Shown here in pieces: positions 17,886-24,980 of a DNA stretch of 64,000 bases. The DNA lies in the NCBI GenBank assembly GCA_963733035.1, contig CAVTBU010000005.1, forward strand, positions 32,001-96,000, in the 5' to 3' direction. The notes under the pieces were generated by a model. That model worked only from the letters and a program-made list of their open reading frames with translations, was not told the DNA's origin and ran no database searches. Source of the DNA: Pirellulales bacterium. GTDB taxonomy: Bacteria; Planctomycetota; Planctomycetia; Pirellulales; PALSA-1355. Positions within the stretch are counted from its first letter, which is position 1. Each line of letters starts with the position of its first letter. The translations under genes were made by a program, and so were the position numbers.

Positions 17886-19037
17886 ATGACCCGGAAAATC
17901 CAAGTTGCGATAGTCTCCGCCACCATTCTGATTGCAATTCACGCACGTGCAAGGGCTAATTTTTACACCGTAGGTCCAGGTTACGGGAGCAACAATCCTG
18001 CACCGTCGAGCGGGCCCTATTACCCGGTATCAATCGTCAGCAACAGCGACCTTCCCCAAGGTCAGTTTGTCGATAACTTCGATACTGGTCTCATCCCATT
18101 GAGTCAGGTGGTCTCTCTCCCCGACTTTGGTCTTCACGCTTACGAGTCGACTTACGACGGAGGAAGTGTGAACGCCGATGGTAGCCCGTACGGGGGTGGT
18201 CCTGGTGGATACTACACACTAGGTTTGAGAGACGCCTATGTAAAACAAGTCGGTAATCAAGTCACGGTCTACGCCCCATATTTTCAAAACGTCGTATTTG
18301 TAACCGCAAGGGATTACACAACTGATGATGTCCATTTGATACCGCCTCCCCTTTCCTACTTCGGCGGCACCGACGTAGCCGATTACCAAATTACACGAGA
18401 CTTGGCACAAGCAGGACATATGCCAAACGGCTGGGACTTTCAAACCATTGATGGTGTCGCTTTACTCTCCCAGACTTATACTGATTCAAACGGGACGCAA
18501 TACTTAAGGGGGGTAAGTACCGATATTCTTCCGGATGCTCAAGAAATTGTTACCACTCATGTTTTTTTCGACGACCACAACCTTAATCCGTCTGACACCG
18601 AATGGGTCAATATGAACGGCGACTTAGTTGCCGCAAATTCCAATGATTTACTGCTGGGGAATTTCAGCGCACCTATCCTCACTGAAACGGGGCAGCAACT
18701 TACAGGTGTGGTGCCAGTGTGGACAGGACTCACTGCCCCGTATACCGTCGGCACCGGTATTCAATCTTACGTCCGTGCTGACGGCACCTACAATGCGAGC
18801 GGCTGGACCGATCCATACACCAGCTCTGCCGCCATCGGAAATCTAAACGGCCAAGGCACAGAGTGGATTAACCATGGCACACAAGCTGCTTATGATGTGG
18901 CCAAGCTATATGGTCTCACACGGGCCATGGCTGGTTATGCTCCCTTGCTGGTATACACCGTTCCCGAACCAAGCACATTCGTGCTGGCGATCCTCGCATG
19001 CGCATCCCTATTCTGGTGCCGAAATCGGCGGAATTAA
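17886..19037 (+). CDS. PEP-CTERM sorting-domain secreted protein
   Basis: Signal peptide; C-terminal VPEPST, TM helix and RNRRN. Confidence 0.9.
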   Translation: MTRKIQVAIVSATILIAIHARARANFYTVGPGYGSNNPAPSSGPYYPVSIVSNSDLPQGQFVDNFDTGLIPLSQVVSLPDFGLHAYESTYDGGSVNADGSPYGGGPGGYYTLGLRDAYVKQVGNQVTVYAPYFQNVVFVTARDYTTDDVHLIPPPLSYFGGTDVADYQITRDLAQAGHMPNGWDFQTIDGVALLSQTYTDSNGTQYLRGVSTDILPDAQEIVTTHVFFDDHNLNPSDTEWVNMNGDLVAANSNDLLLGNFSAPILTETGQQLTGVVPVWTGLTAPYTVGTGIQSYVRADGTYNASGWTDPYTSSAAIGNLNGQGTEWINHGTQAAYDVAKLYGLTRAMAGYAPLLVYTVPEPSTFVLAILACASLFWCRNRRN

Positions 19038-19172
19038 TCGCCCGTCGCTCTCAACAATCCGTCCGCATTGTCGGGCGGCAAGAGTTGTTGCGTAGACCCG
19101 ATATTGGGTTGGTCATCATCTGGCGTGTACGCCGTCCCGTCGCCGTATAATCCGTGCAAATACGGTGCGACC

Positions 19173-19213
19173 AGCGATGGATGCTAAACGCAAGGCGTTT
19201 AGCGTCCATCGCT
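19173..19213. repeat. 19-bp inverted repeat (hairpin)
   Basis: AGCGATGGATGCTAAACGC-AAG-GCGTTTAGCGTCCATCGCT, one wobble position. Confidence 0.85.
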
Positions 19214-19231
19214 TCCACGGAAATCGAAGTC

Positions 19232-19262
19232 GGATTCAAAATCCAGTGCCCGCAAGGGCGTG
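19232..19262 (+). other. tRNA-Leu(CAA)-like fragment, probable att remnant
   Basis: GGA-TTCAAAA-TCC anticodon arm followed by the long variable arm GCCC-GCAA-GGGC; lies just 3' of integrase 3. Confidence 0.6.
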
Positions 19263-19336
19263 GCAGGGCAAATTGGCTTTGCTCACGTAGTCTACTCCCT
19301 TCTAAATGGACTCAGATACGACGTATTTCAGAACGG

Positions 19337-19858
19337 TCAGTAACTCAATCTCTCCACGCCTTCAGCTAACTGCTCGCCGCCTCGCTGCGAGTAGCGGCTT
19401 GTGGTTTGTAGATTGTGGTGACCGAGAATCTGAGCCAGACTCACCAAGTCATTTGCGTTGTCCGCAAGGAATTGCTTCGCCATCGTGTGTCGAAAGACGT
19501 GCGGGTGCAGGCGCACGCCAATCAGCGCCGAATACTTTCGACTTAACGCACGCACACCGTCGTCCGTCAATGGTCCCCTCTCGCCAACAAAGACTGTCAT
19601 CGACTCGACCGCTGGCCGAGAATCCAAATAAATCTGCATTGCCCGACGAGCCGGCAGCGGAAGTGGCACCGCTCGCTGCTTGTTTCCCTTTCCGTGGCGA
19701 AATACCACCGAACCATTTCGTTCTCCAATCTGAATGTCGGACAGCTCCAGATTCACAATGTCGCTGACCCGACAGCCCGTGTAGAGCATCAAACTAAAGA
19801 TCGCCCCGGCTCGAATGTCGTGCCGCAATTCAATCTCTCGCAACAATCGCCGACGCTC
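19337..19858 (-). pseudogene. Tyrosine recombinase C-terminal fragment (integrase 3)
   Basis: Paralogous to 1783-2628 from RRLLREIEL to the stop; N-terminus absent. Confidence 0.88.
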
Positions 19859-21512
19859 GAACGCGGTGAACCAGCGACAGTTGACGATTGGCTCAGTAGC
19901 ACGGCAATCGCATCTTAATTTGCGGCGAAACCCAGGAGAATTCGTTCGAGGGTGTTGATATTGAGGCAGGCGCGGTAGCGTTTGCCGCGGATGTTGTCTT
20001 TGATGGAAGTGTCCGCCGAGAGGATGGACACTGCCAGGCGTCGCAACATGGCCGAGGTCTGGGGTGCGTGCTGCTTGCGGATGCGGCTGGCGTCTTCTGA
20101 AAAAGTTACATCGAGCACCCAGTGCAACTGGCTTTCGATGCTCCAGTGCTGGCGGATGAATTTGGCCAGCGTCTTCACCTTGGGCGGCAGGCTGCTGAGG
20201 AAGTAGCTGTGACCAGCGTTGATTTTCTGTACCACCGGTTATGAAGGTAGGGGTTGGGATAAAGGTTCTTCGTCTTGGGTTCGCGTGTGCTGCTGGAGCG
20301 CAGGCGCAGCCGGAGCGGAAGCAGCACACGGGCGGCGAACTCCGAGGGGGTCCGGTAGCCCAGCGAACTGTGCGGCCGGTGATGGTTGTAATCCTCTCGC
20401 CAAGCGGCCGTTAGCGTGCGGGCTGCCGCCAGGTTCTCGAATACCTCCACGGTCAGGAACTCGTCCCGCAGCCGGCTGTGGAAGCTCTCGGCGTAGCCGT
20501 TCTCCCAGGGGCTGCCCGGCTCAATGTACAACGCTTCGACGTCCACCTGGTCCAGCCAGCGCCGGATCGTCGCGGCAACGAACTCGGGACCGTTGTCGCT
20601 ACGGATGTGCTTGCGGCACGCCCCGCATCGCAAACAGCTCGGCCAGCGTGTCGATCACGTCCTCGCTGGTGATGCTGCGATCCACCTTCAACGCCAGGCA
20701 CTCCCGCGTGTGCTCGTCCACGATCGAGAGCCACTTCAGCTGGCTGCCACTGGCCGTGCGATCGAAGACGAAGTCCCAGCACCAGACGTGGTCCTTGTGA
20801 TCGCTCGCCGCCTGTGACAAGCGTTCGCGCTCGTGCCCAATCGCCGCTTTTTCGCTTCTTTTGCGGCACTTTCAGACCCTCCCGACGCCACAGCCGATAC
20901 ACCGCGTGTCGCTGGCGCTGCCATCCTTCGTGACGCAATAGCTTGCGGTGATCCGCCGATAGCCGAAACGCGGATGCTCCCGCGCCAACTCCAGCATCCG
21001 CCTCACCAGCGCCGGTTCGTCGTCGCGTGGCTTGGCTGGTAACGTTGACTCGCCCGCGGTTGGTCCAACACCCGGCACGCCCTTCGCTCGGAGACTGCGA
21101 ACTCCTTGCGAAGCTCACCGACCGCCGCACGCTTCCGCGAAGGGCTTACCAGTTTCCCTCCGCGACGTGCTTCAGCATCTGGATGTCGAGAGCCTGGTCG
21201 GCCACGATCTGCTTCAGCCGGCGGTTCTCGTCTTCCAGCTCCTTCAGCCGCTTCGCCTCCTCGGCCTTCATCCCGCCGTACTGGTTCCGCCAGCGGTCGA
21301 ACGTCGACTGGCTGACCTCCAAGGCCTGCAGCACGGCCGCCAGGTCCTTGCCGGCGTTGAGCATCGCGTCCGCATCCCGCAGCTTCCGCACGATCTGCTC
21401 CGGGTTGTGTCGCTTCCGTCGCTTCGTCGTCATCGAAGGTCTCCTTGCCCTCCAGGGGCTCAAGACCTTCATAACACGTGGATCAGGATTTCAACAGCAC
21501 CCATAACCACAG

Positions 21513-21518
21513 TGTCAA
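21513..21518 (-). promoter_or_regulatory. Outward-facing -35 (TTGACA) that completes a junction promoter on circularisation
   Basis: The reconstructed circle junction reads TTGACA-N16-TACGAT with an extended TG; copy A also has TTGACA at 394-399. Confidence 0.65.
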
Positions 21519-21519
21519 G

Positions 21520-21821
21520 GGCTCTGTCTCTCTGTCTTGTTTTGATCATTTCGGAACAGAGAAAGGCTAGACGGGGGTGCAGGGGGTGGCAATGAACGCC
21601 CCTGCTCGACGACACGATGTCGTCGAAACTTCTCGCGTGCACCCCAGCTTTGTCGGCGCGAGGCGTAAGCACCCATTCGTGCCGTCCGGCACAAGGCCGT
21701 CGCACAGGAGACGATTCACATGGCAAGTCGCCCAATCAGGTCAACAGTGGAGGTCAAAGCTCACTAGCTATTGAAACGGGCCGATCCTGCCATTCGCATG
21801 CGCCCGCCATGAACCGATGCT
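21520..21821 (-). ncRNA. Putative bridge/seekRNA of IS1111 copy B
   Basis: Target-matching segments at 21767-21776 and 21737-21743; donor-matching segments at 21670-21676 and 21711-21715. Confidence 0.75.
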
Positions 21822-22814
21822 CTAGTTCGTTTCTTGCTGCCAACGTCGCAGCCGCTTCCAGCAGATTTCTGCCAATTTCCGAGCCACTGCAACTCTTGCG
21901 ATCTTGGCACTCGATCTCTTGCGGATTCGCTGATAAAAGTTCTTCAAACCTGGATCCTCTGTGACAACCTTGATGGCGGCTTCCACGAGAATCCACCGTA
22001 GCCAGGGAGAGCCGTCTCGCGATATTCGTCCGTGACGACAGACGGTGCCCGACTGCCGTACACGGGTTGCAAGGCCGGCATACGCTCCTACCTGCTTGGC
22101 AGTCCGGAATCGCTCCACGTCGCCGAGTTCCGCGATGATAACCAGCGCAGAGTAAAGCCCGATTCCCCGGATGTCGAGCAATGCTTCGGTCTGCGGGAAC
22201 TGGGCCGCCAACAGCTCAAGTTTCAGGTCGACTCGTGCGATTCGCCTTTGAAACGACTCCAGACGTTCCAATAGATCATCCCGCAGCTCGTTCTCGATTG
22301 GACCGAAGTCCTGCCGACGAAACCAGTGGAGTCCTCGGGGGCCAAATGGGACACGAAAGGGAGCCTCATAATTGCGGCGGGCAAGGATAGCACGCAAGCC
22401 GATCTTGACGCCTCCGGCTCCGCGGCCCAGCCGTATTCGATAGCGTGTCAATTCCCGGAGTTGCTGATAGGCTGGCGAAGGAACATACGAAAGAGGGATT
22501 TGGTTGATGCGAAGCAAATTGGCCAAGAGTTGACTGTCCAGCTTGTCCGTCTTCGACCGACGCTGCACCATCGCTCGCAATCGTAGCGGGTGGGCAACCA
22601 GCACCGTCCCAAGAGGATTCAGTCGCTCATACAACCAGCGGTAGCTTGCGCTCGCTTCGATAACTGCCCGAAATGGCTGCAACCGATGGAAAACTTGCAG
22701 CATCGTGGACTCGTCCTGAGTCGAAATCCGAACAGGCGCCATCGCCTGCCCCGAATCGTGAACCGCGGCCACCACCAGGTCGCGACGATGCAAATCAATG
22801 CCGACGTGCCACAT
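21822..22814 (-). CDS. IS110-family recombinase/transposase
   Basis: VGIDLH, IEAS, KTDKLDS, DIRGIG and RQSG motifs. Confidence 0.95.
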   Translation of the reverse strand: MWHVGIDLHRRDLVVAAVHDSGQAMAPVRISTQDESTMLQVFHRLQPFRAVIEASASYRWLYERLNPLGTVLVAHPLRLRAMVQRRSKTDKLDSQLLANLLRINQIPLSYVPSPAYQQLRELTRYRIRLGRGAGGVKIGLRAILARRNYEAPFRVPFGPRGLHWFRRQDFGPIENELRDDLLERLESFQRRIARVDLKLELLAAQFPQTEALLDIRGIGLYSALVIIAELGDVERFRTAKQVGAYAGLATRVRQSGTVCRHGRISRDGSPWLRWILVEAAIKVVTEDPGLKNFYQRIRKRSSAKIARVAVARKLAEICWKRLRRWQQETN

Positions 22815-24359
22815 AACTTGGGCTCCTTGTTTAGCGGCCTAGGAATCACCTTGCGGCTTATCCTACCCGCAGGCCACGAGCCCTCGTTCAGTGGTTATCG
22901 TATCAGGTCAGCTGACCTCGCCCGTTTCCCGCCCAGCGATCCGGGTGATCCGCAGCACCATGACGAGCGTGGCCAAGCCTTTCCAGTCGGCAACGCCGGG
23001 CAGCGACCGAGGAGCGGGCAGCACCGTGTATTCGCGGCGTTCTTGACGGCCGCGGTTGGTTTCCGTCGTCACGTGCCGACACATGCCGGGTGGCCGAACG
23101 CGGGCTTCCAGGGCCGTGGTAAACGCCGCATCCACCGCTTGGTGCAACTTTTCCTGATTGCCCTTGAGCGCCAGCACGTAGTCGCCGCCGCCGGCGACGA
23201 TCTTGGTGGCGATTTCTTTCTGACAGCCCATGGCATCGATGGTGACCGTCGCGCCTTTCAGATCGAGCAGTTCCAACAGCAGCGGAATCGCCGTGATTTC
23301 GTTGGATTTCGAGTCGACGGCAACCTGCCCTAGCGTCAGGCGTGTCTCGCTGGCCCAGGCACTCACCAGGTGCAAGGGATTGCGGCCGGCCGCTTTGTCT
23401 CCGGAGCCGCGCAAGGTTTTGCCGTCGATGGCAATATGCTTGCCGATTTCGCGGCCCAGATCGTCGAGCCACTGCTGAATGCCAGCGACCAACTCGGCAG
23501 GATCGAGCATCGCGAACACGCGGCCAAACGTGTCGTGCGAGGGGATGCCGCCTTCGAGTCGCAGAAACGTTCGCAGCCAGACCAGCCGATCGTTGCCAAA
23601 CCGCTCGATGTCAGCCCAGGTATCGGCCCCCGCAATCGTGCCGCACAGCGCCACAACGACCAACTCGAACAGGTCGTGCACACGCGTCCGCTCGATCCGC
23701 GGATCGGTCAGATCTTCAAACGGAGTAAAAACTGCCACGAGTCGCTGCGACATGAAAAAACCCTCCGTGAGTGACGTTCCTCCGAAGGAATCCTTCAAGG
23801 GCCCTTGACTCTTTCAAGCCGCTACCAATAGTGCAACAGAATTAGATGCGATTGCCGTGGCTCAGTAGCAAATTCCGTTGGGCATTGAGTGCCGTAGTAA
23901 TGTTGCAGTAATTGGTGATCACTCGCAGTCTATCGAACTTTGACACATGACCACGATGCGGACTTTGCGGCGGTTGCGGACGCTTGTGGGCTCGCTTGCC
24001 AATGGATGCCTGCCGCTACGCTTGGAACTGCCACCCGCTGAAGTAGACGGATTACGATTTTGTAAGGAATCGGATAGTCTCTTGAGAGGGTAATCCTTTC
24101 GTGTTAGCGTCGGCACGGCGCCCGACAATCGGCCATTGACTGCCGCGAAAGAAGAGACCGATGGAAAGCTCTAGAAACACCCAGGTTCCAAACGGGTTGG
24201 CTGGCTTCTGTCGTGCGGCGGCATTCCGTGGCACCCCGAAGGGACCGGGTATGCGCTGCGGGCCCGCCACGACGGGATGATTTTTCTGCCGAGGGGTTGA
24301 AACATTTCCCGTCCGGTCTTCTTCCGCTTCGTTCCTATCTAGATGGGGGCTCCGTGACA

Positions 24360-24980
24360 ATGAACGAGGCGTTTCCGCCACGCCCGCGGGAGAATTCCTC
24401 GGACACCCCGGGCGCCGTGGATCAATGGCTTCGAGAAGCTCGCGACGGTTCGCGCACGGCTTTGGGCCGGATTATGGAGGCTAGGCGCAACCACTTGCTA
24501 CTGGTCGCCAACCGTTCCTTGGGTCAAAACCTAAGGTCCAAGATCGGCGCATCGGACCTCGTACAAGATACGTATGTCGAGGCGCAACGCAATTTCGGCC
24601 ATTTCCGCGGAAGTACTGAACAGGAGTTTCATGCTTGGCTTTTGGGCATTTTGGCCAATCGGCTGGCTAATGCCGTGCGCTTCTACCGGCAGACGCAAAA
24701 ACGCGCCGTCGACCGCGAGTTGTCCGTGGCGGCGGTCGATGCGGCACTGAGCATACTGCACGACGGAGCTGCCACACCCGGCACTAGGATGCTGGTCGAC
24801 GACGAGCAACGGCGCGTACGGCTGGCACTGCAATACGTACAGGAACCGTGGCGGTCGGTACTGGTCGAACGGATCTGGCAGGGAGCCACGTTTGCCGAGA
24901 TCGGCGTGCGAAGAAATCGTTCCGCCGAGGCGGCCCGTAAGCTTTGGGTTCGGGGCGTGCGGAAATGCGAGAAGCACTAG
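24360..24980 (+). CDS. ECF sigma-70 factor
   Basis: ASDLVQDT, FHAWL and region-4 TFAEIG..SAEAARKLW; C-terminus possibly frameshifted. Confidence 0.85.
   Translation: MNEAFPPRPRENSSDTPGAVDQWLREARDGSRTALGRIMEARRNHLLLVANRSLGQNLRSKIGASDLVQDTYVEAQRNFGHFRGSTEQEFHAWLLGILANRLANAVRFYRQTQKRAVDRELSVAAVDAALSILHDGAATPGTRMLVDDEQRRVRLALQYVQEPWRSVLVERIWQGATFAEIGVRRNRSAEAARKLWVRGVRKCEKH

Follow-up and report, generated by a model that had tools for sequence, protein, structure and literature searches.

The window analysed here is a stretch of 64,000 nucleotides from a Pirellulales bacterium (assembly GCA_963733035.1, contig CAVTBU010000005.1, positions 32,001 to 96,000; coordinates below are window positions), in which transposable elements are nested in one another. 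The innermost one is an intact insertion sequence (IS) of the IS1111 type, a member of the IS110 family, which very probably entered the left terminal inverted repeat (IR) of an IS3-family element by RNA-guided recombination of the recombinase type. The IS3-family element in turn lies within the transposase gene of an ISAs1-family element. The conclusion is carried by the junctions of the IS1111-type element, the complementarity of its guide segments to both flanks, the agreement of guides and flanks across its relatives, and the finding that the target is an IS3 tip.

Junctions and anatomy of the IS1111-type element

The junctions can be read to the base. On the plus strand, the sequence at 21499/21500 is ...GGATTTCAACAGCA / CCCATAACC... 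and that at 22905/22906 is ...GTATCA / GGTCAGCTG..., with the slash marking the junction. Deletion of 21500-22905 in silico joins the flanks to ...TTCAACAGCAGGTCAGCTG, and the minus-strand equivalent of the joined sequence is the IS3 tip TGACCTGCTGTTGAAATCC. The restored IS3 end reads TGACC-TG-CTGTTGAAATCC with a single TG at positions 6-7, and this TG within the left IR of IS3 (IRL) is the insertion point. In the sense of the element, TG is present at both junctions (22904-05 and 21498-99). Hence, the element boundary is ambiguous by 2 bp, which fits a core dinucleotide. Taking out 1406 bp leaves one TG in the restored IS3 end, and this absence of a target duplication is a hallmark of the IS110 family.

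On either side of the IS3-family element lies a 4-bp duplication, GCTG (20206-20209 and 22911-22914), and the orfA of the element matches Pfam HTH_Tnp_1. When the IS3 element, the IS1111-type element, and one GCTG are taken out together, a single open ISAs1 transposase frame of 397 codons is regained (...RETGEVSYFLSSLPP...), and one contig from the public run X3 directly links both ISAs1 halves. A full-length homologous IS3 element from another genome (G009) aligns with the reconstructed IS3 over positions 1-1295 at 81% identity. As the homologue aligns from base 1 of the reconstruction, the tip of the IS3 element is TGACC. An earlier note on this DNA, made from the sequence alone, had claimed that removal of the IS1111-type element restores the IS3 left end together with its GCTG duplication. 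The regained ISAs1 frame and the alignment of the homologue from base 1 both bear this out.

The transposase aligns by sequence with those of ISCro4 (9t56) and IS621 (8wt6). Specifically, the columns GIDxx, xEAx, SKTDxxD, and xSGx of ISCro4 and IS621 correspond to GIDLH, IEAS, KTDKLD, and QSG in the window transposase. The combination of an N-terminal DEDD/RuvC-like domain with a C-terminal PF02371 domain bearing Ser-Gly is that of the IS110 family. The C-terminal motif is GLATRVRQSG, which retains SG and has T in place of the P of the published GL-P----S(t)G. Among 72,556 plasmid records, the best match to the transposase has 34% amino acid identity, and the nearest named family is that of ISHvo10.

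The transposase gene (22814..21822) starts 91 nt into the element, and the non-coding DNA is accordingly distributed as 322 nt on the 3′ side of the gene versus 91 nt on the 5′ side. In the open-access text of PMC11187229, a long 3′ non-coding region is described as a feature of the IS1111 group, and so are terminal extensions of 7 bp (or 6 bp) on the left and 3 bp on the right. The window element has subterminal inverted repeats with just such asymmetric extensions, 7 bp on the left and 3 bp on the right; the subterminal repeat is perfect over 8 bp, compared with 12 bp in its relatives. The IS1111-type identity proposed in the earlier note thus stands on both Pfam domains, the 3′ non-coding region, the 7/3-bp extensions, and the order of the guide segments, which is that published for seekRNAs. 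When the two ends are abutted as a circle, the sequence TTGACA-16 nt-TACGAT spans the junction, its −10 element being supplied by the left end (22897-22902). From this reading, the circle junction of the element would form a candidate junction promoter, as junction promoters are reported for IS110/IS1111 elements in the same open-access text (PMC11187229).

Guide segments, target, and relatives

Read as RNA, positions 21733-21781 of the minus strand give GGCCCG-UUUCAAUAGC-(hairpin)-U-UGACCUG-AUUGGGC. The right guide UUUCAAUAGC forms nine Watson-Crick pairs and one G:U pair with the top strand GCTGTTGAAA, which comprises the second core base and the right flank. The left guide UGACCUG is identical to the left flank plus core, TGACCTG, and therefore pairs with the bottom strand CAGGTCA. 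These are the segments that the earlier note had picked out (CCCG-UUUCAAUAGC-hairpin-UGACCUG-AUUGGG), with the same single G:U on the right and the same complementarity to CAGGTCA on the left. The top-strand complement lies 5′ of the bottom-strand match, as is described for IS1111 seekRNAs in the available text of PMC11187229. The pairing scheme follows the rules given for IS621 in that of PMC11208160, where pairing includes the core and engages the bottom strand through the left guide and the top strand through the right one.

To place the complementarity on a genome-wide scale, all 824,665 TG sites on both strands of the 6.6-Mb genome were scored against the two guide segments in a fixed homologous register. 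The window site scores 7 on the left and 10 on the right. Only one other site in the genome has the score 7 + 10, namely C10(-)64306, and the next best score is 8 + 7. The site on contig C10 belongs to a truncated IS3 copy (83% identity over 343 nt), of which it is the intact, empty left end. Within the IS3 left end, the target of the element is TGACCTGCTGTTGAAA, and the guides do not match the IS3 right end, TGACCAGCGTTGATTT.

We then inspected the exact 16-mer target in 401 genomes of the order, and found 15 occurrences in 7 genomes, with up to 6 in one genome and often ~120 nt from a contig end. All 12 distinct sites that were examined are IS3-type tips. Eleven of them coincide with position 1 of an IS3 homologue (79-91% identity), and the remaining one belongs to a miniature element of ~160 bp with the same terminal repeats. 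Another genome, G031, has three full-length IS3 copies with the left end TGACCTGCTATTGAAA, in which the single G:U becomes A:U and the guide match is perfect. The proposal of the earlier note that the guide targets the IS3 left IR agrees with these 12 sites and with the matching of homologous guide positions to their own flanks in the relatives described below. The ~160-bp miniature element (L245, G244:C316:13886-15500, ~positions 101-260) has IS3-type repeats TGACCTGCTGTTGAAAAAGG ... CCCCAAAACTGATCC-like and ends in CAGGTCA. It is without coding capacity and is probably a miniature inverted-repeat transposable element derived from the lineage of the host IS3.

Relatives with 51-71% amino acid identity are abundant. 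There are 74 relative loci in species-representative genomes, most of them titled Planctomycetota metagenome-assembled genomes (MAGs), and 80 of 240 relatives on metagenome contigs were kept, the best having 70% amino acid identity. The ends of the relatives are TG/ATACT-ATAACCGCCGCG ... CGCGGCGGTTAT-GGG/TG. The RNA region of 27 representative sequences was aligned (alignment A2), and the consensus has an outer stem, another stem that closes the first loop, and one hairpin within each of two loops. RNAalifold predicts 28 pairs on A2, 14 of which have compensatory changes, and the stem closing the target loop has G-C in 14 sequences versus A-U in 12. The variable columns of the alignment are both strands of the first (target) loop. 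Those of the donor-loop strand AUGGGUG are invariant in 27/27 sequences.

Loci with a parsable loop and both flanks were grouped by guide, which gave 21 guide groups. Loci with no parsed end or anchor motif were excluded (L053, L055, L056, L065, L071, L074, L091, L096-L099, L108, L116, L119, L123, L125, and L126), and the non-cognate set omits groups sharing the first 10 letters of the right guide or the last 8 letters of the left guide. At least five contiguous pairs from the core are formed by the right guide with its own flanks in 15/21 groups, versus 76/392 with the flanks of other groups. For the left guide, at least four matches beyond the core occur with own flanks in 15/21 groups, versus 10/392 with those of other groups. 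At two loci, L078 and L095, the good match is confined to the left side. The metagenome loci (e.g., L128 and L194), which were left unscored, have the same guide-flank relation by eye. Thus, the strands of the target loop match both flanks and vary with the target across the relatives, which is the behavior that defines a bridge RNA or seekRNA.

Four relatives (L081, L189, L190, and L202) have the left guide UUGACCUG, and the idea that they too are insertions into IS3 ends was dropped as unsupported, because no IS3 genes lie to the right of L081 and L202 and because the window element is outside their clade in the transposase tree. Their targets start with TGACCTG-CCCCC, like the ends of the other IS3 family of the genome. 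This second IS3-family element is present in three copies (C5:1521167-1522434, C8:341210-342477, and C8:365648-366915), 71% identical to the host IS3. The left ends of these copies, TGACCTGCCCCTGATTTTTGG, are like the targets TGACCTG-CCCCCT... of L081, L189, and L202.

Table 1. Positions of the nested elements and of the guide RNA features in the window
Feature	Coordinates	Strand	Basis or remark
Whole IS1111-type element, 1406 bp including the left TG	21500..22905	(-)	Junction reading
DEDD transposase, 330 aa, intact	21822..22814	(-)	Pfam PF01548 (3.2e-15), PF02371 (5.7e-25)
Left end: 7-bp terminal extension TGATACG, then subterminal repeat ATAACCAC	22891..22905	(-)	
Right end: −35-like TTGACA (21513-21518), subterminal repeat GTGGTTAT, 3-bp extension GGG	21500..21518	(-)	
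Bridge RNA/seekRNA scaffold: outer stem, target loop, donor loop	21652..21809	(-)	Alignment A2, RNAalifold prediction
Right target guide (T segment) UUUCAAUAGC	21767..21776	(-)	After CCCG
Left target guide (B segment) UGACCUG	21737..21743	(-)	Before AUUGGGC
Donor-loop 3′ strand AUGGGUG (left donor guide)	21670..21676	(-)	Equals right terminus ATGGG plus core TG
Conserved motif of ~50 nt in the non-coding region	21551..21608	(-)	Recurs in other genomes without a nearby IS110 gene
Host IS3-family body: right IR, broken orfB, orfA (21146-21472), inner left IR	20210..21499	(-)	
Detached 5-bp tip TGACC of the IS3 left IR	22906..22910	(-)	
ISAs1-family transposase gene, N-terminal part	22915..23753	(-)	Pfam PF13808, PF01609; C-terminal part ~19915-20205

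Alternative explanations of the insertion

Several observations, collected in this section, weigh against a guided insertion into a preferred target. As for the guide RNA, an Rfam scan of 19000-24500 with E values up to 1 matched no family, and the fold of the single sequence does not exceed shuffles in stability (z = −0.96). One RNA sequencing run gave two short contigs only, which lie at the transposase start and the ISAs1 flank. Assembly of four sequencing runs gave short contigs, none spanning the element or its circle junction; with at most 0.17 of the sampled words present in any run, they are uninformative on mobility and expression. The 5′ strand of the donor loop has a 5-nt run complementary to the left end in 5/23 cognate versus 5/338 non-cognate pairs, which is a weak signal; donor-binding positions of IS1111 elements are described as often less simple in the open-access text of PMC11208160. 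Among the guide groups, the match is poor in 6/21 on the right and in 6/21 on the left, and at one locus (L059) neither flank matches the guide.

The insignificant single-sequence fold and the lack of an Rfam match could suggest that the complementarity between guide and flanks is a coincidence, and that the element landed unguided. We regard this as extremely improbable, as only one further site among all TG sites of the genome scores equally, and the segments occupy precisely the loop positions that track the flanks across the family.

As for the target, the IS1111-type element is single copy in everything searched. No second copy was found in its own genome, in 61 relatives searched by DNA, in 301 genomes of the order searched by protein, among the species-representative contigs, or among the 80 kept of 240 metagenome relatives, and a pattern search with the guide pair across 401 genomes of the phylum revealed none either. 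Repeated use of the target by the element is therefore not demonstrated. A specialist of element ends is expected to have several independent insertions at the same terminal-repeat position, and here there is one copy. The perfect site on contig C10 is unoccupied.

With one insertion, and with a G:U pair between the guide and the window site, the IS3 end might be an opportunistic or near-cognate site of an RNA-guided element whose main target is another sequence in another host. Three genomes (G014, G016, and G031) hold many copies of the target, yet they contain no full-length DNA match and no protein match passing the E-value cut-off. Furthermore, relatives sharing the left guide UUGACCUG (L081, L189, and L190) have other right guides, and the DNA flanking L081 and L202 is devoid of IS3 genes. 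This explanation is nevertheless quite unlikely in our view. The sole additional full match that the genome contains is itself an IS3 left end, the exact 16-mer is an IS3-type tip in every site examined (12/12), and the variant giving perfect pairing is an IS3 left end in 3/3 cases. Returning to guided insertion into a cognate target, the IS3 left end is likely the habitual niche of the element, to judge from one insertion and the sequence matches. The label "parasite," which the earlier note had used, rests on a single insertion.

Mechanism, known systems, and neighboring features

The insertion may be pictured as follows. The 3′ non-coding region would be transcribed into a two-loop bridge RNA/seekRNA, its transcription being presumed. 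Within the target loop, the 5′ strand, UUUCAAUAGC, would pair with the right flank of the TG core on the top strand, and the 3′ strand, UGACCUG, with the core and its left flank on the bottom strand. The donor-loop strand AUGGGUG would pair with the element's own right end and core. The DEDD/Ser transposase would then swap strands at TG between the circularized element and the target, and this strand exchange would leave TG at both junctions and no duplication. We infer that the element is active.

Transposition of IS3-family elements requires both intact ends with terminal TG...CA. In the window, the bases beside the inner IS3 repeat are now ATGGG instead of TGACC, and the tip TGACC is 1.4 kb away from the rest of the repeat. 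Hence, the IS3 element has no usable left end unless the IS1111-type element excises precisely, and it is plausible that the insertion immobilised it, as the earlier note had inferred.

It is also possible, if rather doubtful, that the insertion had no functional consequence, the IS3 copy being already dead when entered and the IS1111-type element perhaps inactive. Compared with two homologues having intact orfA and orfB, the orfB of the host IS3 is split by at least six frame-changing indels. The genome contains no other full-length copy of the host IS3 to provide transposase, the three other IS3-family copies being 71% identical, and the second perfect target on C10 is unused. On the other side, in the IS1111-type element the transposase frame, the two ends, and the RNA scaffold are intact. 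Moreover, the indels may be sequencing errors of the assembly, and one locus does not reveal the order of decay and insertion.

A broader scenario can also be drawn, which we consider unlikely as a whole. The IS1111-type element could belong to a lineage confined to the left ends of a single IS3 lineage, which it would accompany from genome to genome. It could act as a reversible off-switch for IS3, as precise excision restores the end, and use IS3 as a safe harbor and vehicle. IS3, a multi-copy, mobile, and dispensable sequence, would then serve the element in both roles. The guide is perfect for the IRL variant of a different genus (G031), and has a wobble match to the variant of the present host.

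Elements of the IS110/IS1111 kind that are guided by RNA have been published, together with the architecture of their loops and their programmability (PMC11187229 and PMC11208160). The window element resembles ISEc11, ISKpn4, ISPa11, and ISPst6 (Siddiquee et al. 2024, PMC11187229) in having a 3′ non-coding region in which the top-strand complement is 5′ of the bottom-strand match, guide matches that overlap at the insertion point, subterminal repeats with 7/3-bp extensions, a transposase within 330-350 aa, and no duplication. It differs from them in its target, in a very distant sequence, and in the T versus P of GLATRVRQSG. In common with IS621 (Durrant et al. 2024, PMC11208160), there are two internal loops, a left guide for the bottom strand and a right guide for the top strand with the core paired, and a donor loop, of which the 3′ strand AUGGGUG here equals the element's own right end plus core. 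Unlike in IS621, the RNA is at the right end, the order of the loop guides is reversed, and the core is TG rather than CT.

With regard to the target, IS4321 and IS5075 are likewise IS1111-family elements aimed at the terminal IR of another transposable element. Their hosts are Tn3-family transposons (Tn21-family repeats), and nearly 900 of their insertions are recorded, compared with one here. IS1383 inserts in the IRs of IS1384 in Pseudomonas putida H (Muller, Lauf and Hermann 2001) and thus also targets the IR of another IS; this likeness is drawn at the level of the title of that report, and the host IS and the organism differ. ISEc21, a seekRNA-guided member of the IS110 family (PMC11187229), resides within IS3-family elements too, where its target is inside the transposase genes, whereas the window element has a 3′ RNA and enters the left terminal repeat. 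Targeting of other elements by IS110/IS1111 is therefore already known for Tn21 ends, IS1384 ends, and IS3 transposase genes, and the window locus adds an example. Searches of open-access text, a scope that does not extend to the supplementary target tables of PMC11187229 and PMC11208160, gave no report of an IS1111-type element whose target is the terminal repeat of an IS3-family member.

The locus provides a clear case from nature of an RNA guide landing one mobile element in the end of another, and it comes from Planctomycetota, a phylum in which IS110/IS1111 guide systems are not known to have been studied. The surrounding subfamily is more useful than the single locus. It comprises more than 150 loci with a common two-loop RNA scaffold and many readable guide-target pairs, and the diversity of these pairs makes it a ready data set for the pairing rules of 3′-encoded IS1111 guides.

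Two further observations concern the ends of relatives. In a multi-copy group from one MAG (L057, L058, L060-L063, L084, L090, L114, L120, and L124), the flanks are ...GACTCC-TG/IS/CG-ACCCCTTT. The left junction is TG and the right junction is CG, a difference suggesting that a TG core in the donor recombined with a CG core in the target. In L072, the right terminus is tandemly duplicated before the flank (GGTTATGGG-TG-GTTATGGG-TG).

The ~50-nt motif in the non-coding region of the window element is composed of a hairpin, CAGGGG-loop CGTTCATTGCCA-CCCCTG, followed by ACCCCCGTCTAGCCTTTCTCTGTTCC. It is found at ~85% identity in many related genomes (L003-L030), where no IS110-type gene lies within 1.5 kb, and in the window's own genome it is found only inside the IS1111-type element. 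One genome (G032) has six copies, each ~120 nt upstream of the start of an ISL3-family transposase, and at L007 the motif is upstream of a ParA-like gene. It has no match in Rfam. The motif was considered as an outward sigma-70 promoter and rejected, as TTGCCA-17-TAGCCT is under the scan threshold and no promoter was called in 21400-23000.

Beside the ISAs1 element ends a phage-integrase-family (tyrosine recombinase) domain on the minus strand (19337-19900; PF00589, 6.6e-28). The integrase open reading frame continues into ISAs1 sequence, and the integrase gene may therefore have been truncated or abutted by the ISAs1 insertion.

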